Source: an uncultured Eggerthellaceae bacterium
Lineage (GTDB): Bacteria; Actinomycetota; Coriobacteriia; Coriobacteriales; Eggerthellaceae
Assembly: GCA_964518575.1 (NCBI GenBank)
Contig: CAZFGW010000002.1
Coordinates: forward strand, 61,974 to 125,973
DNA length: 64,000 nt
Direction of reading: 5' to 3'
Shown: positions 14,521 to 52,631 of the stretch, in pieces
Position numbering within the stretch: the stretch's first letter is position 1
How the letters are laid out: each line of letters begins with the position of its first letter
Translations under genes and position numbers: made by a program
The notes under the pieces: generated by a model
Told to the model about the DNA's origin: nothing
What the model saw: only the letters and a program-made list of their open reading frames with translations
The model's database searches: none

Positions 14521-14564
14521 CTGTGATACATTCAATGCATACTATTCTTTTGAGATAAGGATCT

Positions 14565-15503: not shown

Positions 15504-15531
15504 CCAGCTGCGTTGGGAAGAGGCGCTTTTT

Positions 15532-16416: not shown

Positions 16417-16433
16417 GTTCCACCTTCGCCTGT

Positions 16434-16988: not shown

Positions 16989-17177
16989 GTGATACCTCCT
17001 TTACCCGTTCGTTCATTGCCCTTATTGTCCTCTTCGGAAAATGATGGCGAAGGTGAGGGAGGGGACTGTTTCTCAGAGGGGTTCACCCTGTAAAGAAACC
17101 GTGGGAAACGGGTATGCCCGCAACGCGCAATGAACTATGCATGGATGGTTGATATACCAAGAGGAATGATAGCTGGG

Positions 17178-17210
17178 CATAGACGTTGGGGCGAGATTCA
17201 TCTCGCTCGC
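17178..17210 (+). repeat. Palindromic repeat, copy 4
   Basis: CATAGACGTTGGGGCGAGATTCATCTCGCTCGC. The stem spans 17189-17208 (7 Watson-Crick pairs plus 1 G-U). It lies 37 nt beyond the stop (17247) of the minus-strand gene. Confidence 0.8.
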
Positions 17211-17246
17211 TGTGTCAAAATGCTATCAACGGCTATGTTGCTCGAA

Positions 17247-18671: not shown

Positions 18672-18817
18672 AGGCTATAGTCCTTTTACTGCTCGGTTGT
18701 CGTTTTTGTGCTGCGTTCCCATTTGCGCAGTGCTTAATAACCCAGTAAAACTATACTATAAATACACAATAATTTCACTTACAAAAAGCGCTGAATGAGA
18801 AGGTAAGAGCGGCGATT

Positions 18818-20563
18818 ATGGCACCAAGTGAACACGAACGGGACAATCAATTGAGCGATCAACCTCGATCGCACGGCGGTGTGCACTCGCGTGAAGCCGA
18901 CCTTCGGGAGAGAACTACGGATAAGCGCGAAGCGCTCGTGAGAAGAAAATACTCGTCTGCCGGGCAAAAGAAACAAAGAAAATCCTTCAATCACGCTGCC
19001 GATCCCGTGCCTGAGAAACCTCATAAGCAGAATTTCATCGCGAAGCTTGCCAACGACTGGTTTGACCGGGTCATGGGAGCGATGAAGGGCGACGGACTGT
19101 CAGCGGCAGAAGCGCATTATGCACCCCATCGGACCACGCGCGACTTCCTCTGGAATACGGCGGGTGCGGCGCTGTGGGCATTCGTTTTCCCGATCGTCAC
19201 CATGGTTTCCACACAGATTGTCGGGGTGGAGGAAGCGGGACGCATCTCCATGGCGTTCGTGATCGGGCTTTTGCTGATGTTCCTCGGTAACTTCGGCGTG
19301 AGAACCTATCAGGTGTCCGACGTGAATGAAGAGCATTCGTTTTTGGATTACCAGGCGAACCGCTGGGTCACTTGCCTCTTGATGCTGGTCGCTGGATGGC
19401 TCTATTGCGCCCTGCGCGGATATGATTCGCAGATGTTCAACATCACGATGGCGGTCGTTGCCTATAAATTCGTCGATGCGCTCGCCGATGTGTATGAGGG
19501 GCGGCTCCAACAACAGGACAAGCTCTATCTTGCCGGAATCTCCCAATCCATCCGTTCCGCACTTGCGCTCGTGGTGTTCTCTGTGGTCCTCTTCGTGACC
19601 CGCGACGCCCAAATCGCTTGTTTCGCCATGTTCATCGCTGCGCTTGCTACGTTTATTGTGATCACCTGGCCGCTTACGCTTCTTGAGACGAAAAAGACGA
19701 CCAAGTTCAGCTTCCCCAGCTTTATGAAGCTTTTCAAAATGGCGGCGCCACTGTTCATCGCCATCTTCTTCTTCAATGTGATTGAGAATATGCCGAAGTT
19801 CATCATGGAAGGCGAGCTGCCCTACGACAACCAGCTGTATTACAACGCACTGTATTTCCCCGCGCAGATGATCCTGATCGTGGCGCAGCTCGTGTACAAA
19901 CCGCTTTTGGTGCGTATGGCGGGCGTGTGGCAGGATACGAGCAAGCGGCGCAGGTTCGACCTGATCATGGTGGGCATCCTGCTCGTTATTGTTGTGATCA
20001 CTGCTATCGTGTGGGCTATTATGGCGTGGATCGGCATTCCGGTGCTCAATTTCCTCTACGGCGTCGATTTCGCACCGTATCGCGGGCTGCTTTATCTCAT
20101 GCTCATCACAGGTGGCATCACCGCGGCTATCGATTTCCTCTACCAGTTGATCACCATCATGCGCCGGCAGAAGGACGTCACGGTTCTGTTCGTCATGACA
20201 TTCATCTTTTCGCTCTTCATACCGTTTTTGTTGATCAGTTACGCTCAGCTCGAAGGAGCAGTGCTCAGCTATGTGATCATCGAGGCAATTCTGTTCATCC
20301 TTCTTGCGTGGGACTACTTCAAGATCAGGCGCGATTTGTCGAAGGCGCATGCGCGGGTTGATGAGGAAGAGGAGCCTGAGCTCGCTCGACCCAGCTTTGC
20401 TGCCTTGATCGACCCTGCTGATCCGGAGATGTCCGAAGTCGAGACGGTTGATGAGGAGGAACAGCAACCGCGCAAACTTCGCCCGAGTGAGATCCGGGCG
20501 CGTCGCGAACATCGCGAGGAAGTGATGCGGCGGCGGACCAGGAAAGACCGGCATAAGGAGTAA
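18818..20563 (+). CDS. MOP-superfamily (Wzx/MurJ-like) flippase-like membrane protein with charged N- and C-terminal extensions
   Basis: 581-aa ORF with about 12-14 TM segments. The N-terminal pattern is RDFLWNTAGAALWAF...VGVEEAGRISMAF. The start codon is uncertain. Confidence 0.5.
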   Translation: MAPSEHERDNQLSDQPRSHGGVHSREADLRERTTDKREALVRRKYSSAGQKKQRKSFNHAADPVPEKPHKQNFIAKLANDWFDRVMGAMKGDGLSAAEAHYAPHRTTRDFLWNTAGAALWAFVFPIVTMVSTQIVGVEEAGRISMAFVIGLLLMFLGNFGVRTYQVSDVNEEHSFLDYQANRWVTCLLMLVAGWLYCALRGYDSQMFNITMAVVAYKFVDALADVYEGRLQQQDKLYLAGISQSIRSALALVVFSVVLFVTRDAQIACFAMFIAALATFIVITWPLTLLETKKTTKFSFPSFMKLFKMAAPLFIAIFFFNVIENMPKFIMEGELPYDNQLYYNALYFPAQMILIVAQLVYKPLLVRMAGVWQDTSKRRRFDLIMVGILLVIVVITAIVWAIMAWIGIPVLNFLYGVDFAPYRGLLYLMLITGGITAAIDFLYQLITIMRRQKDVTVLFVMTFIFSLFIPFLLISYAQLEGAVLSYVIIEAILFILLAWDYFKIRRDLSKAHARVDEEEEPELARPSFAALIDPADPEMSEVETVDEEEQQPRKLRPSEIRARREHREEVMRRRTRKDRHKE

Positions 20564-20661
20564 GTGCGCTCTTTCGCGATGTACGTCCGTACGGAACGCG
20601 CATGATTGTGGGGGGATGTACGGGACGGAATCTGTGCTCGGTCGCCTTTTTGAACGAATGG

Positions 20662-32804: not shown

Positions 32805-32949
32805 CCGCTTCTTTTCCTTCATCTACATCACGCGCGGTACACCATCTGGTGTATTTCTTTAATCCGATGATGACAAAAGCGCATCGTCGTGCGGTGCGTC
32901 CATTTCTGCATGGTAAAGTCTGCCCATGCACTCAGAAAGGAGTTCAAGA

Positions 32950-34566
32950 ATGGACGGACAGAACATGAATCCTTCGGGAAATCCTCAGTCCTCTTCACAG
33001 CCGATCCCACCTGATCAGGGAGGAACGTACCCCTATGCTTCTCCGTATGCTTCCTCTCCTGATGCTGGGCAAAGCTCAAGCGAGCGTCCAGCTTCCACCT
33101 ATGATTCGGTCTACGGAGTAGGCGCGCCTCGGACGTCTGCCTACCAGGGGTCAACGCAAGGGGGCGGCAGCGCGTTCGCACATGCTCCGCAATCCACCCC
33201 GCAACCGGACTATGCCACAGCGTTTCACGCAGCAACCGATCAAGCGTCTTTTGCTGGCGCGCAAGCAGCCACGCCGCCCAAGCATCAGAAGGGTGTGTCG
33301 GGCGCGAAGGTGTTCTTGCTCGCTTTCGCGGGTGCCTTGGTCGCGGCGGTGCTCGCCATCGGTGTCGGCAATGCATTTGGATTGTTCGGCAAGGGCAGTG
33401 CTGCTTCAAATATCCAGCTCGGCGCTGCGCATTCCTCTGCGATCGAAGCCGTTGAGGCGGAGCAGACCCTCGCGGAGGCAGTCGCGGATAAATGCCTTCC
33501 TTCGGTTGTGTCGATCACGGTCTACTCAACCTCTACTGGTTCGAGCAATCCGTTCTATGACTATTTCTATGGCGGAAATTCTGGTCAAAGCGGGCAGGAG
33601 CTCGAAAGCGGCTTGGGCTCGGGTGTGATCCTGACCGAAGACGGGTACATCATCACGAACAACCATGTTGTTTCGGGAGGTACGCGCTTTGAGGTCATGA
33701 TCGATGGCGAAACCTACGAGGCTGACCTTGTTGGCACGGATGCCAGCTCTGACGTTGCGGTCATCAAGGCGAAAGACGCCTCCGGGCTCAAAGCGATCGA
33801 GATCGCTGACTCCGACAACATCAAGATTGGCGAATGGGTCATGTCGATCGGCTCGCCTTTCGGACTAGAGCAGTCGGTGGCAACGGGCATCGTATCTGCG
33901 ACGAGCCGCTCCCAGATCATGGACAGTTCAAGCTCGAACATGTTCGATCAGTCATCGTCAAGTCCTGTTATCTATCCTAACTTGATCCAAACGGATGCTG
34001 CTATCAATCCGGGCAACTCCGGTGGTGCGCTCGTAAACGCTAACGGTGAGCTCATCGGGATCAATACCTTGATCACCAGCTACTCGGGCAATTACTCCGG
34101 TGTCGGATTCGCCATCCCTTCGAACTACGCGATCGGACTTGCCCAAGACATCATCGCGGGTAAAGAGCCCACCCACGCACAGCTGGGCGTATCCCTCTCA
34201 ACGGTGAACGATCAGATGGCATCGCGCTACGGATTCGCTGTGAAAAGCGGTGCATACGTCTCAAACGTGAGCCCCGGCAGCGGTGCTGAGAGCGCGGGCA
34301 TCAAAGTGGGCGACATCATCACGGGCTTCGATGGGAAGCAGGTAAGTTCGGCGTCCGACCTCATGATGGATGTGCGCACGAAGTCGCCCGGAGACAAGGT
34401 GACCGTCACGATCAATCGCGATGGACAAACCCAGGATGTCGAGGTGACACTCGGTACCGCACAGGCTGCAACGGAGGCTCCCACGCAGCAGAATAGCGGT
34501 CAGCCGAAATACGATCTGCTTGATCTGTTCGGAAATAATTCGTCAAAAGGAGATTCGCAAAGCTAA
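32950..34566 (+). CDS. htrA: HtrA/DegP-family serine protease with one PDZ domain and a disordered N-terminal region
   Basis: The ATG at 32950 follows AAAGGAG. Triad contexts TNNHVV, DVAVIK and GNSGGAL. PDZ motif AGIKVGDIITGFDG. One TM segment. Confidence 0.88.
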   Translation: MDGQNMNPSGNPQSSSQPIPPDQGGTYPYASPYASSPDAGQSSSERPASTYDSVYGVGAPRTSAYQGSTQGGGSAFAHAPQSTPQPDYATAFHAATDQASFAGAQAATPPKHQKGVSGAKVFLLAFAGALVAAVLAIGVGNAFGLFGKGSAASNIQLGAAHSSAIEAVEAEQTLAEAVADKCLPSVVSITVYSTSTGSSNPFYDYFYGGNSGQSGQELESGLGSGVILTEDGYIITNNHVVSGGTRFEVMIDGETYEADLVGTDASSDVAVIKAKDASGLKAIEIADSDNIKIGEWVMSIGSPFGLEQSVATGIVSATSRSQIMDSSSSNMFDQSSSSPVIYPNLIQTDAAINPGNSGGALVNANGELIGINTLITSYSGNYSGVGFAIPSNYAIGLAQDIIAGKEPTHAQLGVSLSTVNDQMASRYGFAVKSGAYVSNVSPGSGAESAGIKVGDIITGFDGKQVSSASDLMMDVRTKSPGDKVTVTINRDGQTQDVEVTLGTAQAATEAPTQQNSGQPKYDLLDLFGNNSSKGDSQS

Positions 34567-36885: not shown

Positions 36886-38150
36886 GCGGCGGAAAGACGG
36901 GTGACTTTTACCAGAATGCCTTCGATGAGAGGAGAGGCGTGTCCGTATCTGAGGATGCGCACGATGTTCTTGGAGAAGAGGCAAGTCAGCACGGAGGGCT
37001 GACTGATAAACAAATAGCCGCGCGTAAACGTCTTCATCAGCAGACATTGATTTATATCGAAGAGGATAAGGCGCGCAAGGTCGAGGCTGCACTCATTGAA
37101 AAGGAGCGCAAGCAAGCCGAGGAATCAAGGAGCGAGCTCGACGAGCAAGGCAATGACGTTCCTCCTATTGTCTATCGTCCCGAGGATGCACCCGAAGGAC
37201 CGCCGTGGCGCTACGATCTTTCTGCTGATGATCTTGCACGCAAAGCGCGTAAACGTGCGGAGCGCGTGGAGAAGAAGCAGAAGATCAAGAGCAAGGCTTT
37301 GGACAAAGCGCCGAAGAAGTTGAAGAATGCGTCTGACTTGCAAGTACGCTTCCGCACCGCGCTCGTGTATACGCTTGTCACGATCGTGTGTGTGCTCGCG
37401 GGTGACATTCCGCTGTTGTTGTATTTGATGGTCGTCGCAGGCATTTGCGCAGGCGAGTTTTTCTATATGCTTCGCTCTGATGCGAAGTTGCCGAATGAGA
37501 TGCTCGGCATTACGGGCGCGGTCTTATATATTCCCGCTACCTACCTCTGGGGTTTGACCGGCGCGATGATCGTGTCGATCCTGCTTCTGCTGGCACTCTT
37601 GGTCTGGTATGTTTTCTGGCTCAAGGCGCGCATCCAAGATGTCGGCGTCAGTTTCTTTGGAGCTGCCTATACGGGATTGTTGCTCTGCGGGCTTGTTATT
37701 ATCCGGCAGGCGGTCGACGGAATATGGGGCGGTGTTGCCCTGTTCTTGCTGTTCTTGAGCGTTTGGACCAACGATGCCTTCGCCTACTTCTTCGGCAGCC
37801 ATTTCGGCAAGCATAAGATGGCTCCGCGCACGAGCCCGAAGAAGAGCTGGGAAGGAATGATCGCGGGGCTCGTCGGATCGGCTCTCGTCTGGGTGGTTCT
37901 TTCGTTCGTCCCCGGTATATCGCTCTCCATCCCGCTTGCAATTCTGTTCGGTATCATCTCGGGTCTCATGGAGGTTTTGGGAGACCTTGTTGAAAGCCGG
38001 ATCAAGCGCAATTCTGGATTCAAGGATTCGGGAACGATCATGCCCGGACACGGCGGATTGCTCGACCGGTGCGACTCGCTGTTCTTGGCGTCGGTCACTT
38101 CCGCCATCTTGCTTTTGTTGGGAGGATGCATTCCCTATGCCTTGTTCTGA
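36882..38150 (+). CDS. cdsA: Phosphatidate cytidylyltransferase with a ~150-aa charged N-terminal extension
   Basis: The ATG at 36882 overlaps the uppS stop (ATGA). CDS signature ESRIKRNSGFKDSGTIMPGHGGLLDRCDS. Confidence 0.9.
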   Translation: MSGGKTGDFYQNAFDERRGVSVSEDAHDVLGEEASQHGGLTDKQIAARKRLHQQTLIYIEEDKARKVEAALIEKERKQAEESRSELDEQGNDVPPIVYRPEDAPEGPPWRYDLSADDLARKARKRAERVEKKQKIKSKALDKAPKKLKNASDLQVRFRTALVYTLVTIVCVLAGDIPLLLYLMVVAGICAGEFFYMLRSDAKLPNEMLGITGAVLYIPATYLWGLTGAMIVSILLLLALLVWYVFWLKARIQDVGVSFFGAAYTGLLLCGLVIIRQAVDGIWGGVALFLLFLSVWTNDAFAYFFGSHFGKHKMAPRTSPKKSWEGMIAGLVGSALVWVVLSFVPGISLSIPLAILFGIISGLMEVLGDLVESRIKRNSGFKDSGTIMPGHGGLLDRCDSLFLASVTSAILLLLGGCIPYALF

Positions 38151-39264
38151 TCTATCGACAATTGAAAATCCCGCAGCGAAAAAGCGGATCGCCATTTTAG
38201 GGTCCACAGGATCGATCGGCACGCAGACGCTCGATGTTGCTCGCGCACATCCCGATAAGCTGAATGTTGTCGGTCTTGCGTGCGCGACTCAGGTCGATCT
38301 CATGAAAGAGCAAGCACGCGAGTTCGATAATGTGGTGCTCGCGGTTGGCGAAGAGGAAGCGATCGGGCTTGCCCTGCGCGATGATGTCGATCTCGTCGTG
38401 AATGCGATGGTGGGCGCTGCTGGTCTGCGCGCGAGCTATTACACGCTGCTCTCGGGCAAAACGCTCGCGCTTGCGAACAAGGAATCGCTCGTAGTAGGTG
38501 GAGATCTGCTCATGCCTCTGGCGCGCAAAGCGAACAATCTCGTGCCCATCGACTCCGAGCATGGAGCCATCTTCCAGTGCTTGATCGGCGAGAATCCCCG
38601 TGAGGTTGCACGTCTTTGGGTCACCGCTTCCGGGGGACCTTTCAGACACAAAACGCGCGACGAGCTCAAAGATGTGACGGCACAGGATGCGCTCAAGCAC
38701 CCGACGTGGAACATGGGCGCGAAAATCACCATTGATTCCTCAACGCTTATGAATAAAGGTCTTGAGGTGATCGAGGCGCACCATTTGTTCGATATGCCTT
38801 ACGATCGCATCGAGGTTCTCGTGCAACCCCAGAGCGCGATCCATTCGATGGTCGAGTTCATTGACGGTTCGGTGAAAGCGCACTTGGGCACGACCGATAT
38901 GCGTATCCCGATCCAATTCGCACTGAGCTACCCTGAGCGCTGGGACGCTCCCGTCACGCCGCTTGATTTCAAAACGCTCGGTTCGCTCGAGTTCGGCACG
39001 CCCGATCTCGAGACGTTCAAGTGCTTGGCGCTCGCCATCCGTGCGGGACGTACGGGCGGCACGTTGCCCTGCGTTATGAATGCTGCCAATGAAGTGGCAG
39101 TCGCGTCGTTCCTTGCTGGTGAATGCGGATTCTTGGATATTGCCGATTGCGTGGAACATGTCATGGAGGCGCATTCCACGCAACCAGTTTCAAGCATTGA
39201 GCAGCTCATGGACATCGATGCTGATGCCCGGCTCCAGGCTGCTCAGTTCCTCGCACGCATCTAA
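38137..39264 (+). CDS. dxr: 1-deoxy-D-xylulose 5-phosphate reductoisomerase
   Basis: The ATG at 38137 lies 10 nt after GGAGGA. Motifs ILGSTGSIGTQTLDV, LANKESLV, DSEHGAIFQC and NKGLEVIEAHHLF. Confidence 0.93.
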   Translation: MPCSDLSTIENPAAKKRIAILGSTGSIGTQTLDVARAHPDKLNVVGLACATQVDLMKEQAREFDNVVLAVGEEEAIGLALRDDVDLVVNAMVGAAGLRASYYTLLSGKTLALANKESLVVGGDLLMPLARKANNLVPIDSEHGAIFQCLIGENPREVARLWVTASGGPFRHKTRDELKDVTAQDALKHPTWNMGAKITIDSSTLMNKGLEVIEAHHLFDMPYDRIEVLVQPQSAIHSMVEFIDGSVKAHLGTTDMRIPIQFALSYPERWDAPVTPLDFKTLGSLEFGTPDLETFKCLALAIRAGRTGGTLPCVMNAANEVAVASFLAGECGFLDIADCVEHVMEAHSTQPVSSIEQLMDIDADARLQAAQFLARI

Positions 39265-41958
39265 GTTCGCATCCAAGCACGCGTCTTTGCTCGGTGCCGC
39301 TCCGATGGCTCGCTGCGCCTCGGAATCTACGGCATCCGGATTGGTGGGAATGTCACCTCCTTTCTCGACGGTCTCAGTCGGTGCAGTGTCGCCTGCCTTA
39401 TCAGCAGGAGCCGTTGGCGCGGTCGTATCGGTCGTTTCGGGTGATCCCGTTACTCCTGTCTCTTTCATCTGCGCATTCTTCGCTGAAGAAGCAAGGCGTG
39501 CGTCTTGTTCAGATGGCACGTTCAGATCGCTTTCGCGCGTATTGGCATCCTCGGTAAAAGGCGAGCGCACCGAAGGGCATCCTGTAGAGAAGCCCTCGGA
39601 ATCGGTAACCGCGCCCACTTCCCATGCGCGAAGGTCGGCAACAAGGTTTGAGCACATGCCGAACATCTGGTGCATGTTGGTGACCTGCGTGGTGTTCCAG
39701 TCCTCGATTCCGTCGATAGCGCCCAAGGCAATACACCCGTTGAACGCGTAGGCGCAACTGCTCAGATGTTCGGTGTGCCAAGCACGGGTATCGAGGTGAG
39801 CGAGACGCGAACAGTTGTTGAACAGCATCGCGATACTTATGCACGATGTGCCTACGAAGGTATCGGGCAGTGCAAGGTGTTCAAGGGATACACAGTCGCT
39901 GAATACCGACTGGAGCGAGGTGACCTTTCCGGTATCCCACGACGCAAGGTCGAGTGCGGAAAGCGAGCTGCATCCAGCAAACATGCTCTCCATCGTACTG
40001 ACCGCTGATGTATCAAGCATAGACACATTGATGTCCACAAGTACAGCGCAGTCTTTGAAGGCAGACGCCATTGAGGTGACCTGAGCGGTGGTAAAGGAAT
40101 GGATATCGATGCTTCGTATATGGGTGCACCCTGAGAAAAGATGCGACATATCGCTCACCGTTGTCGTATCGAGTGCGCTCAGATCAGCGGTTTCAAGATT
40201 GCTTGCATCAGCGAAGAAGTTGCGCAGCGTTCGTGTCGTTATGGGAAGGTCGACGTTTTCGGACACGACTGCGCGAAGTGCGCCCACATACGGCTTCCAG
40301 GGCAACGCACCTTGAGCGAAGTCAGCAGTGTTTCCCTCCATACCGACGAAGGTATGGGAAAGGAGACGCTCTCCGTGAGCATCAGGTACTTCTCCACGCC
40401 CGAAGGCAAGGATGTACCCTGCTTCCTCCGATCCGTAGAGCGCAGCATAGGCACGGCTTTCGCTTAAGCAAGTCCAGCGAACCACCTTGGTACCCGTTTG
40501 ATAGAGCTCCCTCGTTTTGTCCGTTGCACTACGTGGATCGAATCCGTGCCCACCTCCGTCCATGTACCAAAGTCCATCAGAGCCTACCACGGAGGTAGGA
40601 GCGGGAAAGAGGGTGAGGGTGGACGCGTAGAACGTCGATGGAATAATGATCTCGGTAAGGGCGCTACACCCCGTGAGCGCATTCGCATCATAGATCGTAT
40701 CGGGGATGTTCCACGAGCTGAAATCGATGCGCTCCAAAGAAGAGCAACCGCTCCAAGCCCTCCACGTCGTATCGAAGGACGCTCCGAGCTGCCAGCTGCC
40801 CATTCCCTTGATTTCTCTCAAGCGTGAGCAGCCATCGAACAATTGCTGTATGGAGGTCAGCTTGGGAAGAACCCAGCCCGTTACATCGATCGAGTGCAGG
40901 TGGGAGCATCCGGCGAACGAGGATGTCATCAACGTGAAGCGCGCAGTGTTCCATCCCGTAAGATCAAGGTGTTCCACGAGCTCATTGCCGCGAATGATGC
41001 CGCTTATCTGCGTGCAGGAGGACATGTCCCAGTTTTCTATGAATGAAAGCCCCTCCAAGCAATAGCAGCTCTCAAAGGTGTTCACGAATGTCTCGACGTT
41101 TGAAGTGTTCCACGAAGAGCAATCTCCGATCGATCGCAGTTCATAGGCATTGCTGAACGCTCGGTTGAAGTTCTTAACCCGCGAGACATTCCAGCCGGAT
41201 AAATCTCCCACTGAGCACAAAGAAGTGCATCCGCTGAAAAGGTTCGCCATGTTCTCGACCGAAGCGACATTCCACGAGGAAAGGTCACCTCGGGTAAGCT
41301 GCGAGCAGGAACTGAACATGCCTTGCAATGTGATCGCACTGCTCATGTCCCAAGGCGCAAGCGGAGAGATGTCAGTGATGCTGCCATTCGAGAACATCGA
41401 GCTGAAGTCCGTGCACGCGCTTACATCCCATGACGTAAGCTCTTTGATGTCGCCGTTTATACCGCTTAAGGCGAACGCCGAGCACATGCTTGTCGTTCTC
41501 GATGTGTCAAGCAGCGCGAGGTCATAGCGAGTGCAATGATTCAAGGAGGCGAACCAGAAGTCGAGAACCGGCGGCGAGATCGGGTCTATGACTTTGACCG
41601 CCGTGATATTGTTGGCATGAAAGCGCCAGGGAATGTCGGTTGTCCGCTTGAACCGTTTTTGATCGAGAGCGGTATATCCTTGCGTGAGCGTTGCATTCTC
41701 ATAAGCGTCGGGGATCTCGTCTCCCGCCCCGAAGACCAGCGTTTTTCCGCCATAGACTGCGGCGTAGATGGGCTTGTTCTCATCGAGCGCGGCAAGATCG
41801 AAATCATTCGAAATCATATGCTCGGCGGTCAACCAGGCGAATGCCTTTTGAGCACCCAAGCTTGCACCGATAATAACAAGCATGAGAAAAACGATGAGCA
41901 CGCTTAGTCGCACCCGCCTTCGTTTCGACAACGTCTGTTCTGCCATGAAAGTGTTCAT
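39190..41958 (-). CDS. BspA-type (DUF285-like) leucine-rich-repeat secreted protein with a TasA-like N-terminal signal
   Basis: 922-aa ORF. It has two blocks of ~25-aa repeats of the form W(D/N)(V/T)S.V.(N/D)M..MF..C..L. The N-terminus is KRRRVRLSVLIVFLMLVIIGASLGAQKAFAWLTAEH. The C-tail is Thr/Pro/Ala/Asp-rich and I saw no anchor motif. Confidence 0.75.
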   Translation of the reverse strand: MNTFMAEQTLSKRRRVRLSVLIVFLMLVIIGASLGAQKAFAWLTAEHMISNDFDLAALDENKPIYAAVYGGKTLVFGAGDEIPDAYENATLTQGYTALDQKRFKRTTDIPWRFHANNITAVKVIDPISPPVLDFWFASLNHCTRYDLALLDTSRTTSMCSAFALSGINGDIKELTSWDVSACTDFSSMFSNGSITDISPLAPWDMSSAITLQGMFSSCSQLTRGDLSSWNVASVENMANLFSGCTSLCSVGDLSGWNVSRVKNFNRAFSNAYELRSIGDCSSWNTSNVETFVNTFESCYCLEGLSFIENWDMSSCTQISGIIRGNELVEHLDLTGWNTARFTLMTSSFAGCSHLHSIDVTGWVLPKLTSIQQLFDGCSRLREIKGMGSWQLGASFDTTWRAWSGCSSLERIDFSSWNIPDTIYDANALTGCSALTEIIIPSTFYASTLTLFPAPTSVVGSDGLWYMDGGGHGFDPRSATDKTRELYQTGTKVVRWTCLSESRAYAALYGSEEAGYILAFGRGEVPDAHGERLLSHTFVGMEGNTADFAQGALPWKPYVGALRAVVSENVDLPITTRTLRNFFADASNLETADLSALDTTTVSDMSHLFSGCTHIRSIDIHSFTTAQVTSMASAFKDCAVLVDINVSMLDTSAVSTMESMFAGCSSLSALDLASWDTGKVTSLQSVFSDCVSLEHLALPDTFVGTSCISIAMLFNNCSRLAHLDTRAWHTEHLSSCAYAFNGCIALGAIDGIEDWNTTQVTNMHQMFGMCSNLVADLRAWEVGAVTDSEGFSTGCPSVRSPFTEDANTRESDLNVPSEQDARLASSAKNAQMKETGVTGSPETTDTTAPTAPADKAGDTAPTETVEKGGDIPTNPDAVDSEAQRAIGAAPSKDACLDANLDACEELSSLEPGISIDVHELLNA

Positions 41959-41961
41959 GCA

Positions 41962-42615
41962 CTACGAGCTCACGCTTGCCGCCGCGGTGATGGCAGCCTT
42001 CTGTCCGAGATATGCGTCGATTGCGCTCATCGCGTTGGCGAAGCCCTCTGATTGGATTGCAAAGGCATTGACGTCAATGCTCGTCGCGGAAACACCGATG
42101 TTCTGTATCAGATTCGCCAGCGTCACCGAATCGAAGAGCGGGGGCGTGACGGCATTCGGCGCGAGGAGCTCGTCATAGACGTAGGTGTACGTTCTGAATC
42201 CATCCTTCAAGGTTGCATCTCCTTTGGCATGCCATCCGGTATTTACCGTATATGAGAACAGATCGGCATTTTCACCGTGTGTCAGCGAGCCTTCCGCATT
42301 GAGGGCATCTCCGGTGAACACGGGCACTTTTACGGTCGCAGCAACGTAGGCGCCAAGACTTCCCGTATTGCGCACGAGCGGGTCTTTGGCAACGGTTTGA
42401 GCGGGTGCAAGACCTTTGGCGGCGTTCGCTTCGAACGAGGGCTCCGAAAGCTCGATGGACAGATCGGTGTTCAAGGTGAACGGGTTGCTCAAAAAGGCGT
42501 CATCGGTGAGATAGGCGAGCGCGCTTGAAATGCTGAGCGTGCAGGCAAGAGCTCCGCACGCGATCGCGGTCGGGACTTTCCAGGACGGTTTATGAGCTAG
42601 AGGGTTTTCTTGCAT
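41962..42615 (-). CDS. TasA/camelysin-like secreted protein with a SipW-cognate-type signal peptide
   Basis: The ATG at 42615 follows AAGGAG, giving 217 aa. The signal ends SSALAYLTDDAFLSNPFTLNTDLSIEL; compare B. subtilis TasA ...GGGTWAAFND...GTLDL. KDPLVRNTGSLGAYV motif present. Confidence 0.7.
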   Translation of the reverse strand: MQENPLAHKPSWKVPTAIACGALACTLSISSALAYLTDDAFLSNPFTLNTDLSIELSEPSFEANAAKGLAPAQTVAKDPLVRNTGSLGAYVAATVKVPVFTGDALNAEGSLTHGENADLFSYTVNTGWHAKGDATLKDGFRTYTYVYDELLAPNAVTPPLFDSVTLANLIQNIGVSATSIDVNAFAIQSEGFANAMSAIDAYLGQKAAITAAASVSS

Positions 42616-43151
42616 GGTTCTCCTTTCGAAGGGATGTTCATAGTGATGAGGTCCTCTGTTGCGCGAGCGCGAGAGGTGATGACGACCGGGATGAGGAGAA
42701 GGGAAAGCAGACCAAGGAACACGAATCGGTATCGCTCGATCCACATGAGGATGAATCCGAGATTCGGAAGTGTTAACACCGCCTTTCCTTTCACAGCGTC
42801 GTACGGTACGGGAAGGGGATCGGCTTCGCTATTCGCATCTCCTTTCGTCTCGAGCAAAGCACGATCGGTATCATTCCCAACAACCCGGTGGGTCACGATA
42901 TGGGTGTCAAGTGCGTTGCTTTCAAAAGCAACGATGTCGTTTTCGCTGAGATCCCCACCGCTTGTGCGTGCGTCAACGTAGACGAGCGATCCAACGGGAA
43001 CCGCGGGGGTCATCGAGCCCGTGAGAACGGCGTAGGGCATGATGTGGAATATGCCGGGCACGACCGTTGTTGCAAGCGCGAACACAAGCGGCAGGGCAAC
43101 GCAACCAATAAGGCAAAAGAGGACTTTGCGAAGGCGGGTCATGGTAGTCAC
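42597..43151 (-). CDS. sipW: Signal peptidase I, SipW (archaeal/ER, S26B) type
   Basis: 184-aa ORF with Ser box LTGSMTP, His box VTHRVV, the TKGDAN motif and a C-terminal TM. The GTG start overlaps the adhesin stop (GTGA). Confidence 0.8.
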   Translation of the reverse strand: MTTMTRLRKVLFCLIGCVALPLVFALATTVVPGIFHIMPYAVLTGSMTPAVPVGSLVYVDARTSGGDLSENDIVAFESNALDTHIVTHRVVGNDTDRALLETKGDANSEADPLPVPYDAVKGKAVLTLPNLGFILMWIERYRFVFLGLLSLLLIPVVITSRARATEDLITMNIPSKGEPCKKTL

Positions 43152-46100
43152 GGACGCATCCTTCCCGATGTCCTGACCGGTTTTCTCGCACAGCTGCGCT
43201 GGGTTTTCCTTGCCATGCGGCTAAAGAAGAGGGAACATGCGAGCGCGAGCGCGGTCGAGAGTGCGAGGATTGCACCGAGCAGATATGAATCGCCCGTCTG
43301 TGGGAGTGAGCTCAACGTTTTGGGAGTGCGCGACGCATCATCGTTAGGCGTCGGGCGTGTAAACACGGATTGCTCCGCGCTCTCGGCGTCCTCATGTGCG
43401 GCAATCTCTTCATCACCAAGGAAGAGCTTCTCGAAAACCACGAAGTGCTCGTCACTGAGGTCATCTCCCGTTACCGCGAAAGGTATGTCGAGGGTGCCAT
43501 TTGCGCTCTCGGGCGTGAACGAGACTGTTGTGGTGAGAGGATTACCCTCTTCATCAAGATAGGGCGTTGCCTGCGCCGTCTTTGATCCCTCTGTCGGGGC
43601 GAGCGTCATGAGTGTTCCTTGCATGGTGTAGGTGCGCCCTGCTTGAACGTTGGCATACTCAACAGTGTCGACGATATCGACCTTCTTGATCGTTGACGTC
43701 GGTTGTTGCGGTGCTATGTGGTCGGCACTCTCGGCGATGTGGGCGTGCGTTTTAAGGGTAGGTGCTGCGATGCGCACCGTTTGAGCTGCGTTGTTGGGGT
43801 CGGAGTGCTCGAGATGGATTTGCCCGTCGCTGAGAAGCGTTTCGAACACCACGATCTGGCTTTCAGGCTCAAGCTGCGTTGAGTCGAAGTCAAATGCAAC
43901 GGAGGTGATACCGGAGGCGTTTTTCGCTGTGAAGGTCTGCGAAGCAGTAATGGGCGTTCCCGTTTCGTCTAACAAACTTGTTGTTGTTTCGTCGTGCGGG
44001 TTTTTGAGCGCGAGCGACCCGGAAACGGTATATTCCCTGCCTGGTTCGAGATTGCAATAGGAGATAGTGTCGATCAGGTGCGTCTCGGGAGATGCAACAA
44101 TCTCCTTATCGTTGGTGATGGCGCTTGCCGCATAGGTCTCGATGAGGGGCGCATTCACGAAAAGCGTCTGATCGGGGTCAGATAGGTCTTCGTGGGTTGC
44201 AACAACCTCACCCGTTGTCTCGTCGATGAGTCTTTCAAATACGACGATCTTTTGCCCGGCGAGTGAGCGCGTATCGAGGGTGAACGCCATATCAACGTAG
44301 CCGCTTGCTTGCTCGCAGGAAAACGTTTTCGACACCGTTGCCCCAGGTATATCCGTCAAAGGCTGTCCGTCCCCAAAGCGGTAGAGCGTACCTGTGAGCA
44401 CATAGGTCTTACCCTGCGTGAGACCGCTATATTCGACGCGGTCGAGAAGGCTTGCCGTACTTGATGCGGAGAGATACTTGCTCGCATCCTGAGCGTTTTT
44501 GGCAGAGGTATGCAGTGATGGCGTCGGCTTCAGCCGATCGATGACCGTGCCAGCAAAGATGTTGTATGCATCGCGGTTGACCTTGATGTCATCGAGTGTG
44601 ATGAGTTCGAGATCGTGGTTTTTGGTACAGGGGAGTTCTTCGATATGATAGGTGTCAAAGGGAAGCGCTCCCACGGTATCGTTTGGCTGTGTGATGCCGT
44701 TTTCCGCTTTTCCGAACCATACGCCTGCATGCTCGTCGAGCAGCTCCTCGTCAACGGTTCCATCTGCTTTGAGCGCGCGATCATTGGCATTGGTGGATGC
44801 CGTGTGGGGATGCCACGCTGCTGAGGTATCGAATTTCCCCATCTCGCCCGATAAAACGACATGCTGCTCGCCCGTGGTCTTCGAGGTAATGAGGAAGGGG
44901 ATGCCCTCCATGCGTTCTTGGTTCGTTTCTCTGACCTTGATGAATGAGAAGTCGCCGCGCTTCACGCGATTCTGCGCAGCGTTTTGCTGGGTAAAGGGCA
45001 CGATCTTGCCGTTCTCGGTGATGTCGAAGACGCGCTCTGCGGTATCGGTGAGCAGATACCCATCTCCTGCGGCAACTTCGCGAAGAAGATAGCTTCCATA
45101 GGGAAGAAGATCATCGGTGCTCATCGCGCAGCCGTCCTGCACGCAGATCGTGGCGACGACGGCGTCCGTTGGATAGAAAATGCCGCCAACGCAAACGGGG
45201 TGAGCGGAGCGATTGACGATCTCGAACGTTGTTCCGTCCAGCGTAGCAGCTCCGAGCGGATGAGGCAGGAGGCTTTCCGCGTCAAGCTTATCAATCCGCA
45301 CGCCGCCACGGATGGCATGATTGGAAACTTGAGGAGCGGCAAACGAATGGATCGATTCCGCGGTGCCTTCCGGCTCGATCTTCTTCAAAATGACAGTGGG
45401 GTCGAGAAGATAGCCACAGGGCGGCTTCGTTTCCTGAATACTCACGGTACCGAGCGGCATGCAGGGCGCTCCCGTGCTATCCAAATACAGCTCGTCTCCG
45501 CCGATGAGGTGGTCGTCGTCAAGAAGAATCGCTCCGGCATCATCCGTTTTGAAGTGCCAGGTTCGCGTCGGCGTGTGGTTTCCAAGCGCCTCGGCTCCGC
45601 CGTCCAGATAGGCATCGTAGTGCTCGATCTTGAACTCCGCACCCGAAAGGAGAGCGTTGCCTTGAGGGGCGCTTGTTGCTGATTGCGCATCCAGCTTGTT
45701 GAGGAGAAGGTCGATGCGTGCACTTTGCGGAGTATCGGTGACCGAAAGCGCGCTTGTGTTGCCCGCCGTGACATCCACGCGATGGATGCGCTCGTCAACT
45801 GCGAAGCCGCGCCCGATCACCGAGCCGACATTCTCCTTGAGGTAATACGTACCCGGCTGCAGATCGGGGGACGTGCCGTGCCCGTTCGCGTCAAGGGTGA
45901 TGGTTGAAAGATACTCGGTGCAGGCAGGATTGGTGAAGATGTCGTAAGCGATTCCCTCCATGGTATAGAGGTGGTTGCCCTCTGAAAGCGCAGGGTTGCC
46001 CGACTGTTTTGTCAGATCGATCTTACCTTTCGCCTTGATGGCGAATTTGTAGACGCCCACGCCCGGTTGGTTCGCAACGGCGGGACCGACGAAGCCGAGT

Positions 46101-47632
46101 ACGATATAGGGCGTGGGATCAGCGGTGTTGAGATCGAGAACGCGGAGCTTCATCGTGCCTTCGGTGGGATCCGGTCCGGTGGGTAGGGCATTGGTCGTAT
46201 GACAACATTGCAGACCGAAGTGAGCATTGCCATATCCACTGTCCCAGTTGCAATTGATCGGCCACCGCTCCGAGTGCCAATACTGACCATTGCTCACATG
46301 CTCCCCGAACCAGAAGACATAGTTGAAGTAATTACGCGATGCCTGAGAGCCATTCGGGGTGACCGTGAAGTTCGAAACCGCTCCTTCGGCAACACCGTTC
46401 CAGGTAGCGTTGTTGTTCCATGCGATGTACTCGTAGAGGCTGTCGGGATCGTTGACCCATGAGTAGCAATACGCTCCGCTTGCGATGCATGCCTGCCACC
46501 CGAAATCGCCTTCGCTCACATTTGGCCACCAGTAGTTGAAGTCGGTGTAGATATCGAAGGTCTGCCCGATCTTGAGCGCACTGAGATCGAGTTTGTCGAA
46601 GACGACCTCGGGCACGAAGGAGAGTGCTTGCGAGGGCATATCGCCCGCAGCGGGTGTCGTGAAGTACTCAAGCAGATGGGGTGCGTCGATACTGATATCG
46701 ACCGAGGTAAGCGTGAGGGGAGCATAGAAAAGCTCAAGGCAGCCCGTACGCGCGTCATACGCGGCATTGTTTCCTTCGATAAGGTCGATCTTTGAATCGC
46801 TGCCGTTGATCCTGACACTAAGGTCATTAAGCGAGATGAAATGGCTGTATTTAGGCTGGGTGAGGGGAATGCTGAGCGATATATCGAACGTCGACGCTCT
46901 GATCGAATGCGGCTGTTCCGTTTGCACACGGGGGTCATGGCACTCGATGCTGATGTCGACATCGCACGTGCTCTTCCCTCGCACATCGCTCAGGGCGAGC
47001 ATCTGTGCTTGAAGGGCAAACGCAATCTCTTCGCCATCGCGTTCGTAGAGCTCTTTTGGCACATAGATGATGCCGCGATCCTTGTCCATATAGGGTCCAT
47101 CCACGACATTGCCTGAGTTGTCGAGGGTGGTGAAGGCGACGTCGGTGATCGTGGTGATCCCCTTGATGGTGGAAGGGCTTGCATACGCGATGAGATAGGA
47201 AGACGCTTCACCCGGATCCAGAAGATCAGCCGTTAGGTCGAACTGCCCTGCGATCGCCTCCATCCAGCCGCTGTCGAAAAACAGGCTCTCGAAGGTCGTA
47301 TCTGTGCCTTTGAGCGCGCGGTCGACCAGCGTGAGCTTGAGATACAAGGTATGACCCGTATCGCGGAACTTTTCGCGCTGAAACCCGAGCGCGCTTATGA
47401 GTGGGTCGAGGAGATTCTCGTTCGCTGCAAGCGCGTCTTTGGCATCCCCGTCAAGATTATCGCGAAGGTAATCGTTGCGCTGCTCATACACGGGCGGCGC
47501 GATATCGAGCTCTTCGGCGTATGCCGTTGAAGCTCGGGGAACGAGGGGGATTGAGAGCGACAAGGCGCAGATGAGCAGGATGCAGATGAGATGCTGGATC
47601 GCCTCAGTGCGCCCTCTTGCCGTGGTTCTCAT
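43148..47632 (-). CDS. LPXTG-anchored giant adhesin: novel N-terminal domain, Cna-B/SpaA-like Ig domains, three VaFE/Thr-Gln ester-bond repeats
   Basis: The ATG at 47632 follows AAGGAG, giving 1494 aa. Signal peptide ...TAYA-EE. Three ~125-aa repeats at 43358-44530 contain (I/V)VVFE(R/T/K)L and H.D..(D/N/S)..Q. LPQTG lies at 43292-43306, followed by a TM and a basic tail. Confidence 0.8.
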   Translation of the reverse strand: MRTTARGRTEAIQHLICILLICALSLSIPLVPRASTAYAEELDIAPPVYEQRNDYLRDNLDGDAKDALAANENLLDPLISALGFQREKFRDTGHTLYLKLTLVDRALKGTDTTFESLFFDSGWMEAIAGQFDLTADLLDPGEASSYLIAYASPSTIKGITTITDVAFTTLDNSGNVVDGPYMDKDRGIIYVPKELYERDGEEIAFALQAQMLALSDVRGKSTCDVDISIECHDPRVQTEQPHSIRASTFDISLSIPLTQPKYSHFISLNDLSVRINGSDSKIDLIEGNNAAYDARTGCLELFYAPLTLTSVDISIDAPHLLEYFTTPAAGDMPSQALSFVPEVVFDKLDLSALKIGQTFDIYTDFNYWWPNVSEGDFGWQACIASGAYCYSWVNDPDSLYEYIAWNNNATWNGVAEGAVSNFTVTPNGSQASRNYFNYVFWFGEHVSNGQYWHSERWPINCNWDSGYGNAHFGLQCCHTTNALPTGPDPTEGTMKLRVLDLNTADPTPYIVLGFVGPAVANQPGVGVYKFAIKAKGKIDLTKQSGNPALSEGNHLYTMEGIAYDIFTNPACTEYLSTITLDANGHGTSPDLQPGTYYLKENVGSVIGRGFAVDERIHRVDVTAGNTSALSVTDTPQSARIDLLLNKLDAQSATSAPQGNALLSGAEFKIEHYDAYLDGGAEALGNHTPTRTWHFKTDDAGAILLDDDHLIGGDELYLDSTGAPCMPLGTVSIQETKPPCGYLLDPTVILKKIEPEGTAESIHSFAAPQVSNHAIRGGVRIDKLDAESLLPHPLGAATLDGTTFEIVNRSAHPVCVGGIFYPTDAVVATICVQDGCAMSTDDLLPYGSYLLREVAAGDGYLLTDTAERVFDITENGKIVPFTQQNAAQNRVKRGDFSFIKVRETNQERMEGIPFLITSKTTGEQHVVLSGEMGKFDTSAAWHPHTASTNANDRALKADGTVDEELLDEHAGVWFGKAENGITQPNDTVGALPFDTYHIEELPCTKNHDLELITLDDIKVNRDAYNIFAGTVIDRLKPTPSLHTSAKNAQDASKYLSASSTASLLDRVEYSGLTQGKTYVLTGTLYRFGDGQPLTDIPGATVSKTFSCEQASGYVDMAFTLDTRSLAGQKIVVFERLIDETTGEVVATHEDLSDPDQTLFVNAPLIETYAASAITNDKEIVASPETHLIDTISYCNLEPGREYTVSGSLALKNPHDETTTSLLDETGTPITASQTFTAKNASGITSVAFDFDSTQLEPESQIVVFETLLSDGQIHLEHSDPNNAAQTVRIAAPTLKTHAHIAESADHIAPQQPTSTIKKVDIVDTVEYANVQAGRTYTMQGTLMTLAPTEGSKTAQATPYLDEEGNPLTTTVSFTPESANGTLDIPFAVTGDDLSDEHFVVFEKLFLGDEEIAAHEDAESAEQSVFTRPTPNDDASRTPKTLSSLPQTGDSYLLGAILALSTALALACSLFFSRMARKTQRSCARKPVRTSGRMRP

Positions 47633-47915
47633 GAATTGCTCCTTTCCGCGAGGTTCTCGCTGCCATGGATGAAACAGGTGGTAAGGCACAACCTTAGAGA
47701 CGCCATCTGGCGGAATGTTTGCGCGCATCTTGCGTCCGCGCTGCAAAAATCAAAGGGATAACAGGTGTGTTCTTTGTAAAAATCAACGGTTTTCGAAGCG
47801 AAACGCACCGATCTCTATAGAAAACCTTGCAGATTTCTGATAATCTCTGCGAAAAATCGAACACGGGTATGCGCGCGGGTGGAGAGGCGCGCAAAAACGT
47901 ATAAGGATCTGAGCC

Positions 47916-49076
47916 ATGAACATCATCTTTATCATCTTTTGCGCGGTGATCGTGATAGGGTTTATCGTTCTCATCCATGAGGGCGGGCACTATCTTGCGG
48001 CGCGCGCGTTTAAGGTACGGGTCACCGAGTTCATGCTCGGTTTGCCCGGACCCAGTATCGGGTTTACGAAAGGTGGGACGCGTTTCGGTATTACTGCTGT
48101 TCCGCTCGGTGGCTATGCCAAGGTGTGCGGCATGGAAACCGGACCGATGAGTCCGCACTTAAAGCCGGTTCTTGCTTGCGTATATAAGCGTGGGACGGTG
48201 CTTATGGAAGAGGTTGCCGCCGCGTGTGGTATCACCGACGAAGAGGCGTACGATGCGCTTGAAGAGCTGGTTGAATGGGGCTCGATCGATGGTCCCACCC
48301 GGGCGGACAAACATAATACCTATCGCACACCGGCGCGCGCCATGACTGCGCAAAGCGTTGATAAAAGTGTTCGCGAGAGCGCGGGCGAAACCTCCCAAAC
48401 CGCCGAGACCGCCCAAACCTCACAAACTGCGCTTGCCTCGCCGCATAAGGCGCGTGCAGGAGAGCCCCTTTCCATCGCGGATATCGATGCGTTTTTCGCA
48501 AGCGAATATGCAGTTCAGTATCGAAGCTTGCCATTTTGGAAGCGCAGCGTGATTCTGCTTGCCGGAATTGCTGTGAACCTTCTGTTCGCGATCATCGCAT
48601 TCGTGCTCGTCTACTCCGTGATCGGCATTGACATTGTCCATCCTCAAACGGGCGAGATGGCACACATGACGCTCAATCCTATTCAGTCCATACAGGCGGG
48701 ATTCGGTGCCATCGTGATGACATTCGAGTCCATCCTCGGATTGTTCAATCCCGAGACCGCCGCGCAGACGGTATCGAATTCGACGAGTATCGTCGGAATC
48801 GCAGTGATGTCGGCTGATTTCTTCGCACGCGGAGTGGCGGACGCACTGTTCTTCATGGCGATCGTGTCGATTTCCATCGGATTGATGAATCTTTTGCCGA
48901 TTCCGCCGCTCGATGGAGGTCGGTTCGTGGTTGAGATCATCCAGAAGGTCTCGCGACGCGACGTTCCCATGAAGGCGCTCGGGTATATCTCCTTTGCGGG
49001 GATGGCGCTGTTTTTGTGCTTCTTCGTGTTCATGTTGAATCAGGATATTCAGCGCTACATCTTCGGAAACTGGTAG
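47916..49076 (+). CDS. rseP: Site-2 (M50/RseP-family) intramembrane metalloprotease, apparently PDZ-less with a large insertion
   Basis: 386-aa ORF with HEGGHYLAAR (HExxH), PLGGYAKV and NLLPIPPLDGG motifs. Confidence 0.85.
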   Translation: MNIIFIIFCAVIVIGFIVLIHEGGHYLAARAFKVRVTEFMLGLPGPSIGFTKGGTRFGITAVPLGGYAKVCGMETGPMSPHLKPVLACVYKRGTVLMEEVAAACGITDEEAYDALEELVEWGSIDGPTRADKHNTYRTPARAMTAQSVDKSVRESAGETSQTAETAQTSQTALASPHKARAGEPLSIADIDAFFASEYAVQYRSLPFWKRSVILLAGIAVNLLFAIIAFVLVYSVIGIDIVHPQTGEMAHMTLNPIQSIQAGFGAIVMTFESILGLFNPETAAQTVSNSTSIVGIAVMSADFFARGVADALFFMAIVSISIGLMNLLPIPPLDGGRFVVEIIQKVSRRDVPMKALGYISFAGMALFLCFFVFMLNQDIQRYIFGNW

Positions 49077-52244: not shown

Positions 52245-52292
52245 GAGGCACTATAGGTTTATCGGACAAAAGTGCAATCAAGGAGGTATCGC

Positions 52293-52631
52293 ATGACTGA
52301 CGTCACAGATCCTTTCAAAAATGTATTTCTAGCAGGTATTGGTGCGCTTGCGATCGGTGCGGAGAAATCCCAGGAGATCCTCGATCAGCTCATTCAAAAG
52401 GGGCAGATCACCGTCGATCAGGGCAAAGAGATTGCGTCCGAACTGCAAAGCGACGCCACCGCGAAAACCGCTGAGCTGCGTGATCAGATCATCCAGGCTC
52501 AAATGAAAACGATGAGCAAGGCTGAGCGTGACGCATTCTCAGCAAAGGTTGCGGAAATGGCGGCAACGGTCGATGGTGATGATGCACTCGAAGATCAAGA
52601 GGAAGCAGAAGTTGCACACGATCTGAAGTGA
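52293..52631 (+). CDS. Phasin-like small coiled-coil protein
   Basis: The ATG at 52293 follows AAGGAGG, giving 112 aa. It is helical and acidic. The family call is from memory only. Confidence 0.5.
   Translation: MTDVTDPFKNVFLAGIGALAIGAEKSQEILDQLIQKGQITVDQGKEIASELQSDATAKTAELRDQIIQAQMKTMSKAERDAFSAKVAEMAATVDGDDALEDQEEAEVAHDLK

Follow-up and report, generated by a model that had tools for sequence, protein, structure and literature searches.

The interval between dxr and rseP in a 64,000-nucleotide (nt) stretch of DNA from an uncultured Eggerthellaceae bacterium (contig CAZFGW010000002.1; the whole stretch is called the window here) holds four minus-strand genes which probably represent an ancient, vertically inherited operon of one Eggerthellaceae clade, encoding a fibre and an adhesin as two surface structures. 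In the order of transcription, the products are an LPXTG-anchored fibrillar adhesin, a SipW-type signal peptidase, a divergent BsaA/TasA-family fibre subunit and a large PARCEL/DUF285 repeat protein. These genes can be identified with family models and are tightly chained, two of their products carry the same N-terminal motif, and the cluster is both conserved among relatives and old at this site. A first-pass annotation of the window, made from the sequence alone, had described four chained minus-strand genes that read as a single surface-protein operon running opposite to the core genes on either side. The open reading frames, all three junctions (a GTGA overlap, a 19-nt overlap and a 3-nt gap) and the gene identities bear this description out. 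The same annotation took the block for an accessory segment of unexplained arrival, and this part of its interpretation holds only in part, since an insertion did occur but was not recent.

An old insertion at a recurrent site

A Dxr scan of species-representative genomes gave 80 loci, and the window's proteins were mapped onto each. The best Dxr match among these loci is only 67% identical, so the species of the window is not among them. The genes dxr and rseP lie next to each other, or at most about 0.5 kb apart, in every one of the 50 Collinsella-type loci (L031-L080) and in 11 Eggerthellaceae loci, which agrees with the earlier statement that the two genes are normally contiguous and are interrupted here. 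Eight loci, two Adlercreutzia species included, have one large LPXTG adhesin gene between dxr and rseP (antisense in seven of the eight), unrelated inserts, each about 2 kb long, sit at the junction in two others (L023 and L027), and synteny stops after dxr in 6 of the 80. In Eggerthellaceae, surface-protein genes repeatedly occupy the dxr-rseP junction. Across the adhesin-only and insert-bearing intervals (L004, L008, L010, L014-L018, L023 and L027), the adhesin heads differ among lineages. The adhesin of L008 lies on the opposite strand, and that of L010 is followed by a 255-amino-acid (aa) gene that is sortase-like by eye only.

Relatives with all four genes were found through the contigs of the subunit's homologues. 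All four, in unchanged order, were seen in five additional lineages (L083, L089/L091, L094, L096 and L097), and the cluster is located between rseP and dxr in the first four of these; the contig of L097 shows the rseP side only. One further contig (L081), our sole within-species sample, belongs to the window's own species and carries the cluster as well. Thus, the cluster is present in all six contigs or lineages nearest to the window and is absent only outside this clade. On the two flanks that were compared, the five lineages are the window's closest relatives (ProS 79-80% and Dxr 69% identity), and their pyrH is 86% identical to that of the window, within the range of the adhesin-only loci. 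Identity to the window is 62-86% for core proteins and 27-59% for the proteins of the island. In a neighbour-joining tree built on 1331 columns from five core proteins encoded upstream, where only L083 and L089 of the five lineages could be placed, the window groups with these two at 97% bootstrap, as sister to an adhesin-only clade at 69%. Within the four-gene clade the adhesins can be aligned over their full length, whereas those of the adhesin-only clade have only the stalk in common with them.

These comparisons lead us to conclude that an insertion into an older dxr-rseP adjacency did happen, but before the lineages split, and that the segment was inherited by the window genome rather than newly acquired. 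A recent genomic island, in which four foreign genes entered between dxr and rseP in this genome, would fit with the intact adjacency elsewhere, with the unrelated inserts in L023 and L027 and with the codon likelihoods of the PARCEL gene (z about -2.0) and the subunit gene (z about -1.75), which fall at the low end of the window's range. Even so, we regard such an island as extremely improbable given that five lineages of genus-level divergence share the genes and their order, with the shared position directly shown for four of them, that the 97% clade unites the window with two of these lineages, and that island divergence scales with core divergence. The foreign composition expected of an island did not emerge when the profiles of GC content, GC content at third codon positions (GC3) and codon usage were computed. 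GC content is flat across the window at about 55%, and the island genes have GC3 z-scores of -0.2 to -1.3 and codon-likelihood z-scores of +0.1 to -2.0, inside the range of the window's other genes. In four lineages, the island and core GC3 values are 0.65/0.66, 0.77/0.83, 0.72/0.77 and 0.64/0.67, and thus the island tracks its host. Ratios of non-synonymous to synonymous substitution (dN/dS) of the four genes against L081 are 0.13-0.23, which indicates purifying selection. In the same pair, synonymous divergence is 0.03-0.10 for the island genes and 0.13-0.21 for the flanking core genes, values that come from few sites.

Traces of mobility are equally scarce. A search of the whole 64-kb window returned no tRNA, repeats flanking the segment are at chance level with none meaningful, and none of the four open reading frames that fill the dxr-rseP interval is an integrase or a transposase. 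Because these reading frames and a 283-nt intergenic stretch occupy the interval, there is no room for an integrase. On this point the window scans agree with the first-pass annotation, which had reported no integrase, transposase, tRNA or flanking direct repeat. That annotation had also reasoned that the arrangement would be ancestral, rather than an insertion, if all relatives, distant ones included, carried the four genes here with native codon usage; the nearest relatives do so, and the distant ones do not. The insertion therefore stands, whereas a recent arrival is contradicted by the five lineages, the 97% clade and the native GC3. When antisense, non-housekeeping genes interrupt a conserved order of genes, this alone does not show that they were transferred recently. 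Surface-protein genes have been present at dxr-rseP since before several genera split, with the content of the junction remodelled in place to an adhesin only, an adhesin with a sortase-like gene, or the four-gene cluster.

A candidate fibre subunit and a repeat protein with a common N-terminus

The third gene encodes the candidate fibre subunit. A word-indexed homologue search gave 15 relatives, and we treat these as the subunit family. All 15 match the TIGR04090 model (best E=5.5e-10), five reach E<0.01 with TIGR04088, which covers subunit residues 18-47, and one touches the TasA model. A scan of metagenomes with the subunit alignment gave 545 pattern matches, of which 0 were confirmed. The AlphaFold2 model of the subunit predicts a beta-sandwich core (residues 50-215) with a predicted local distance difference test score (pLDDT) above 90 for 96 residues and with most of its strands in residues 50-190, preceded by a disordered region (residues 1-46) and a free N-terminal strand. 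In TasA and BsaA, the residues just past the SipW cut form a strand that is inserted in the next subunit (PMC11580942, PMC10151520). The BsaA strand of Clostridium perfringens reads V33-x-N35-x-F37, and its N35 forms an isopeptide bond with K74 that is catalysed by E56 (PMC11580942). The same pattern, L42-x-N44-x-F46, is found in the subunit of the window, where N44, E58 and K77 are invariant in the 15 homologues down to 33% identity and the spacing from E to K is 19 residues, compared with 18 in BsaA.

The fourth gene encodes a protein with two repeat modules and an acidic, low-complexity C-terminal tail, and the C-termini of this protein and of its orthologues have neither an LPXTG signal nor a membrane anchor. 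Its N-terminus resembles that of the subunit. A motif of the form A-[YFW]-[LF]-[TS]-x...[ST]-N-x-hydrophobic directly follows the hydrophobic signal segment in these two proteins and in no other protein of the window, reading ALAYLTDDAFLSNPF in the subunit and AFAWLTAEHMISNDF in the PARCEL protein. The more specific pattern A[YF]AW[LF]TD....[ST]N is present in the DUF285 partners of all seven lineages examined. In these seven lineages, hmmsearch with the subunit profile matches the DUF285 partners at their N-termini only (residues 9-82), and hhalign of the subunit family against the PARCEL N-terminus gives a probability of 90% (E=1.5e-6), confined to the first ~60 residues. The PARCEL protein thus has the make-up of a TapA-like protein, with a SipW-type signal and a subunit-like strand on a DUF285/LRR (leucine-rich repeat) body without the fold of the subunit.

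Twice more, in unrelated surroundings away from dxr-rseP, a TasA-like gene is accompanied by a DUF285 gene. One of these sites (L092, positions 10001-20621, 28% GC) contains two subunit genes and a 3443-aa SpaA+DUF285 protein, and the other (L095, positions 298-5240) contains a subunit gene, a 319-aa LPKTG protein and a DUF285 protein in that order. To the eye, the LPKTG protein of L095 seemed a possible TasA-like anchor, but profiles showed no similarity and we dropped the idea.

The second gene supplies a signal peptidase of the SipW (archaeal/ER-type, Ser-His) kind, which passes the TIGR02228 cut-off (69.9 bits against 51.85) and fails that of the Bacillus subtilis SipW equivalog NF046067 (68 bits against 190). 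Residues S46-M47, H88-R89 and T102-K-G-D-A-N107 are invariant in six orthologues, as fits a Ser-His (not Ser-Lys) enzyme with a GDN-type box. Judged by these matches, the peptidase is the same type of enzyme as B. subtilis SipW but belongs to a different orthologous group.

The LPXTG adhesin

The first gene encodes a protein that begins with an ordinary AxA signal peptide, continues with an uncharacterised head of ~500 residues, and then has two SpaA domains and three Thr-Gln ester (VaFE) domains. Its C-terminus consists of LPQTGD, a hydrophobic membrane span and a basic tail, and LPQTGD is kept in the orthologues. With three TQ domains, two SpaA domains, a C-terminal sorting signal and a VaFE_rpt score of 268 bits, it belongs with the LPXTG Thr-Gln ester (VaFE/TIE-type) adhesins. 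Orthologues that align end to end (41-43% identity) are present in L083, L089, L094, L096 and L097. No sortase-like active-site motif (TLxTC) occurs in any reading frame of the window.

The head has no Pfam match and no hit in a profile search of the PDB, and a structure model from the single sequence is uninformative (pLDDT 32). A HMMER search of representatives nevertheless found the head module on 138 cluster representatives, and each of the five that were checked by Pfam has a SpaA and/or TQ stalk. Among 27 diverse members, Cys476 and Gln522 are present in 27/27, His478 in 26/27 and Gly524 in 25/27. We considered a canonical thioester domain and rejected it. No TED or TQXA model from Pfam or NCBIfam hits the head, the motifs [YFL]C-hydrophobic-hydrophilic and TQxx-hydrophobic-W are absent, and the invariant Cys and Gln are 46 residues apart, compared with ~170-200 in solved Class II domains. 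With its conserved Cys476, His478 and Gln522, the head might conceivably be a binding domain of a novel type, reactive or cross-linked.

A proposed assembly route and its alternatives

Because the subunit shows a donor-strand pattern, E58 and K77 are invariant and the PARCEL N-terminus is shared, we propose that the fibre is built in three steps. SipW would remove the special signal peptides of both the 217-aa subunit and the 922-aa PARCEL protein. The freed N-terminal strand of the subunit (...L-S-N44-P-F...) would insert into the beta-sandwich of the next subunit by donor-strand exchange, and N44, E58 and K77 may lock this contact by an Asn-Lys isopeptide bond, as in BsaA. The PARCEL protein, with its own putative donor strand (...I-S-N51-D-F...) and with no acceptor core and no anchor, would dock in one subunit and could thereby serve as a TapA-like initiator or cap that displays the repeat domain on the fibre. 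The LPQTG adhesin, with its Thr-Gln ester and SpaA stalk, would form a second, sortase-anchored structure transcribed from the same promoter region. We treat it as co-expressed and outside the fibre because it has an ordinary signal peptide and because its head is unlike the subunit. In its most specific form, which we offer tentatively and consider unlikely to hold, the proposal is that the PARCEL adhesin is covalently fastened to a TasA/BsaA-type fibre by an isopeptide bond between PARCEL N51 and subunit K77, producing a heteropolymer in gut Actinomycetota. If true, this would be the first tip adhesin delivered by exchange and lock, and the first case outside Firmicutes and Archaea.

A number of points weigh against this interpretation. 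The subunit scores below the curated cut-offs of all three relevant models (TIGR04090, 32 against 60 bits; PF12389, 16.9 against 22.5; TIGR04088, 17.8 against 19). A Foldseek search of the PDB with its model retrieved generic Ig, cohesin and PapD-like sandwiches only and not TasA (best E=4e-3, template modelling score <=0.4), and the subunit-family profile found nothing relevant among PDB sequences. We call the protein a divergent member of the BsaA/TasA family on account of this combination, a match that is below the cut-off yet significant together with a structural search that returned only generic sandwiches. The spacing from N to E is 14 residues in the subunit and 21 in BsaA, and the equivalence of the N-E-K triads is therefore one of pattern and not of structural alignment. 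The PARCEL partner of L095 has Asp in place of the donor-strand Asn, and the shared N-terminal motif could be a SipW recognition signal only. Nothing ties the LPXTG adhesin physically to the fibre, and in hhalign its head is unlike the subunit (4-5%). Whether the adhesin came first at the junction, or all four genes came first and some were then lost, rests on nodes at 69% bootstrap.

The recognition-signal argument leads to a simpler account, namely that these are separate, co-regulated surface proteins. SipW would process both, the TasA-like protein would act alone in a matrix or camelysin-like role, the PARCEL protein would be released or loosely associated, and the common motif would be the element that SipW recognizes. 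This account is a genuine possibility, although we lean towards doubting it. It is helped by TIGR04088, a model defined for signal peptides whose span already takes in the shared motif, by the lack of structural or multimer support for docking, and by C. perfringens BsaA paralogues that lack the triad and are reported to form no long polymers. It fits less well with the fact that the residues right after the SipW cut are the donor strand in TasA, TapA and BsaA, and with the finding that in 6 of 7 lineages the PARCEL partner keeps the Asn together with the hydrophobic residues beside it, when the rest of these proteins is only 24-31% identical. A large anchorless repeat protein would also require some means of retention, and the gene pair recurs in unrelated genomes. 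A more elaborate alternative is a three-part, wall-anchored pilus with a PARCEL tip, a TasA-like shaft and the LPXTG adhesin as a base that accepts the last donor strand. The adhesin gene does come first in each lineage, orthologues of the adhesin head (residues 36-530) are confined to the four-gene clade while adhesin-only relatives share just the stalk, and L095 has its small LPKTG protein between the subunit and DUF285 genes. However, we judge this pilus very unlikely, since hhalign of the head against the subunit family gives 4.6% and 3.9%, on which basis we also rejected the head, at the level of sequence, as a TasA-like acceptor, and since the LPKTG protein of L095 is likewise dissimilar. 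The occurrence of the head family on 138 representatives, with SpaA and/or TQ stalks in the five scanned, and the poor structure prediction for the head also count against the pilus, and BsaA polymers are reported to be membrane-anchored rather than wall-anchored (PMC11580942). We therefore retain the fibre with a separate adhesin as our working interpretation of the operon.

Junctions, gene starts and flanking genes

The dxr-rseP interval measures 8.65 kb, and the four minus-strand genes (39190-47632) are the only genes in it (Table 1). Two gene starts differ from those of the longest reading frames. For the reading frame 41962-42744, the real start is the ATG at 42615, which has a strong AAGGAG just before it. 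For the reading frame 43148-47746, it is most likely the ATG at 47632, again with AAGGAG just before it; this start is backed by the top hit of the representatives search (P0016, 1494 aa), which is 100% identical to the 530-residue query and has the same Met. Direct reading of the junction shows the TGA stop of the adhesin gene and the GTG start of sipW sharing a GTGA at 43148-43151, with an alternative sipW start at an ATG 9 nt downstream of the GTG. The TAG of sipW sits 19 nt inside the subunit gene (overlap 42597-42615), and the subunit and PARCEL genes are separated by a gap of 3 nt (41959-41961). These overlaps are kept across lineages. The sipW gene overlaps the start of the subunit gene in 6/6 lineages, by 19-49 nt, and the adhesin gene overlaps sipW mostly by 4 nt.

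At the left end, the last 25 PARCEL codons run antisense to the final stretch of dxr, no terminator separates the two genes, and the first-pass annotation had not mentioned this overlap. Because it is 12 nt in L083 and absent from L089, L094 and L096, the overlapping tail of the PARCEL gene is lineage-specific. At the right end, an alignment of the intergenic region from five lineages (window 47790-47860, with L083, L089, L094 and L096) contains the invariant element ATTATC, which reads GATAAT on the strand of rseP. In L089 a TTCACA lies 17 nt upstream of it, and the spacer of the window has a 10-nt deletion. The element looks like an rseP promoter, perhaps created or retained once the operon parted rseP from dxr. 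In a scan for promoters and terminators, counts were no higher than in shuffled sequence and no consensus promoter was called, and an Rfam scan of the window gave zero matches.

Family models confirmed the identities of Dxr, the M50/RseP protease, IspG and ProS, although the RseP of the window scores 125 bits with TIGR00054, below the cut-off of 147.55, and an exact-sequence look-up returned no record for it. The genes pyrH, frr, uppS and cdsA were confirmed through contig L081 (97-99% identical). An HtrA-like Trypsin-PDZ protease gene at 32926-34566 precedes pyrH and is conserved at that place in L081 and L083. Downstream of proS there is a small phasin-like gene (52272-52631) with a counterpart at this place in L083 and L094.

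Table 1. Positions of the genes, segments and intergenic features at the dxr-rseP junction, numbered from the first letter of the window
Feature	Position	Strand	Evidence or detail
dxr, left flank	38137..39264	+	TIGR00243 430 bits, above cut-off; 375-aa gene called in L081
Convergent 75-nt overlap, dxr 3' end (+) and PARCEL gene 3' end (-)	39190..39264	.	Reading-frame coordinates; same in L081
PARCEL/DUF285 + BspA-type LRR repeat protein, 922 aa	39190..41958	-	DUF285 E=2.7e-73; LRR_5 E=1.8e-13; TIGR02167 E=1.4e-45
PARCEL segment mimicking subunit signal and donor strand, A39-F53: AFAWLTAEHMISNDF	41800..41844	-	Motif, profile, hhalign
Divergent BsaA/TasA-family fibre subunit, 217 aa	41962..42615	-	TIGR04090 E=8e-8; Pfam Peptidase_M73 E=0.006
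Putative SipW cleavage region and donor strand of subunit, A32-T47: ALAYLTDDAFLSNPFT	42475..42522	-	TIGR04088 span; L42-x-N44-x-F46
SipW-type (archaeal/ER-type, Ser-His) signal peptidase I, 184 aa, C-terminal membrane span	42597..43151	-	TIGR02228
LPXTG-anchored fibrillar adhesin, 1494 aa	43148..47632	-	Pfam TQ E=2.6e-78, SpaA E=3.7e-20; NCBIfam VaFE_rpt E=1e-80
Adhesin head, residues 36-530	46042-47527	-	Cys476 at 46205-46207; Gln522 at 46067-46069
Divergent intergenic region, adhesin start to rseP start, 283 nt	47633..47915	.	Sequence read; presumed operon and rseP promoters
rseP-type M50 site-2 protease, right flank	47916..49076	+	Peptidase_M50 E=4.6e-45; TIGR00054 E=2.7e-36

Relation to known systems

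Eggerthellaceae are common gut bacteria. We came across little on their attachment to surfaces, and a full-text literature search for SipW with Eggerthellaceae returned no paper. The operon is a concrete and testable candidate for an adhesin-bearing fibre in this family. If the proposal is true, the SipW/TasA/BsaA assembly principle would extend to Actinomycetota, and DUF285/PARCEL repeat proteins would acquire a specific way of being displayed. Systems of this kind are already known, because the operons of BsaA-family members are reported often to include genes for LPxTG and SpaA proteins, signal peptidases and sortases, and heteropolymers are described as possible (PMC11580942).

The closest system is sipW-bsaA-bsaB-bsaC of C. 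perfringens (Obana 2020, as cited in Kivimaki 2025, PMC11580942), followed by tapA-sipW-tasA of B. subtilis. Like the bsa operon, the segment described here has a dedicated SipW beside a small TasA-like subunit with a predicted beta-sandwich core and a putative SipW-type signal, and it combines these with a large exported partner that is not TasA-like and with the LPxTG/SpaA type of operon neighbour reported for the BsaA family. The hydrophobic-x-Asn-x-hydrophobic putative donor strand and the conserved Asn/Glu/Lys set likewise resemble those of BsaA in pattern. Unlike the bsa operon, it belongs to a member of the Coriobacteriia, outside the groups in which the N-E-K triad has mainly been reported (Clostridia, Coprobacillaceae, Enterococcaceae and Thermococcus; PMC11580942), and its subunit falls below the family cut-off. 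The segment has a single subunit gene and lacks a paralogue like BsaB, its first gene is that of a Thr-Gln ester LPXTG adhesin, and in place of BsaC, the von Willebrand A protein of C. perfringens, the partner is a PARCEL/DUF285-LRR protein with a putative donor strand of its own. No type IV pilus genes were noticed nearby, although no search was aimed at them.

The resemblance to tapA-sipW-tasA is in the placement of SipW beside a fibre subunit and an accessory protein whose subunit-like N-terminus is joined to an unrelated body. In B. subtilis, SipW processes the subunit as well as the accessory protein TapA, as we propose for the window, and TapA acts solely by donating its N-terminal strand to TasA (PMC10151520). 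The order differs in the window (adhesin, sipW, subunit, accessory protein), the peptidase does not reach the NF046067 score, and TasA lacks the Asn/Glu/Lys triad (PMC11580942). The TapA family was absent from the Pfam and NCBIfam hits of the window's proteins, and no comparison was aimed at TapA.

The two large proteins can also be compared with families of their own. With TIE-type adhesins (for example C. perfringens CpTIE and the VaFE repeat proteins, NF033903), the adhesin shares the succession of signal peptide, head, SpaA/Thr-Gln ester stalk and LPXTG signal, and it differs in having no canonical thioester domain. The repeat body of the fourth protein (PF03382, 243.8 bits; TIGR02167, 152.4 bits) is that of the PARCEL/DUF285 proteins of Mycoplasma (lipoproteins), Listeria and Lactococcus. 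To our knowledge, the known members of that family are lipoproteins or have an anchor of their own, whereas the protein of the window has a SipW-type signal and a donor-strand-like N-terminus and no anchor. What is particular here, in comparison with all of these systems, is the Coriobacteriia host, the PARCEL/DUF285 partner with its putative donor strand and the stable position between dxr and rseP.

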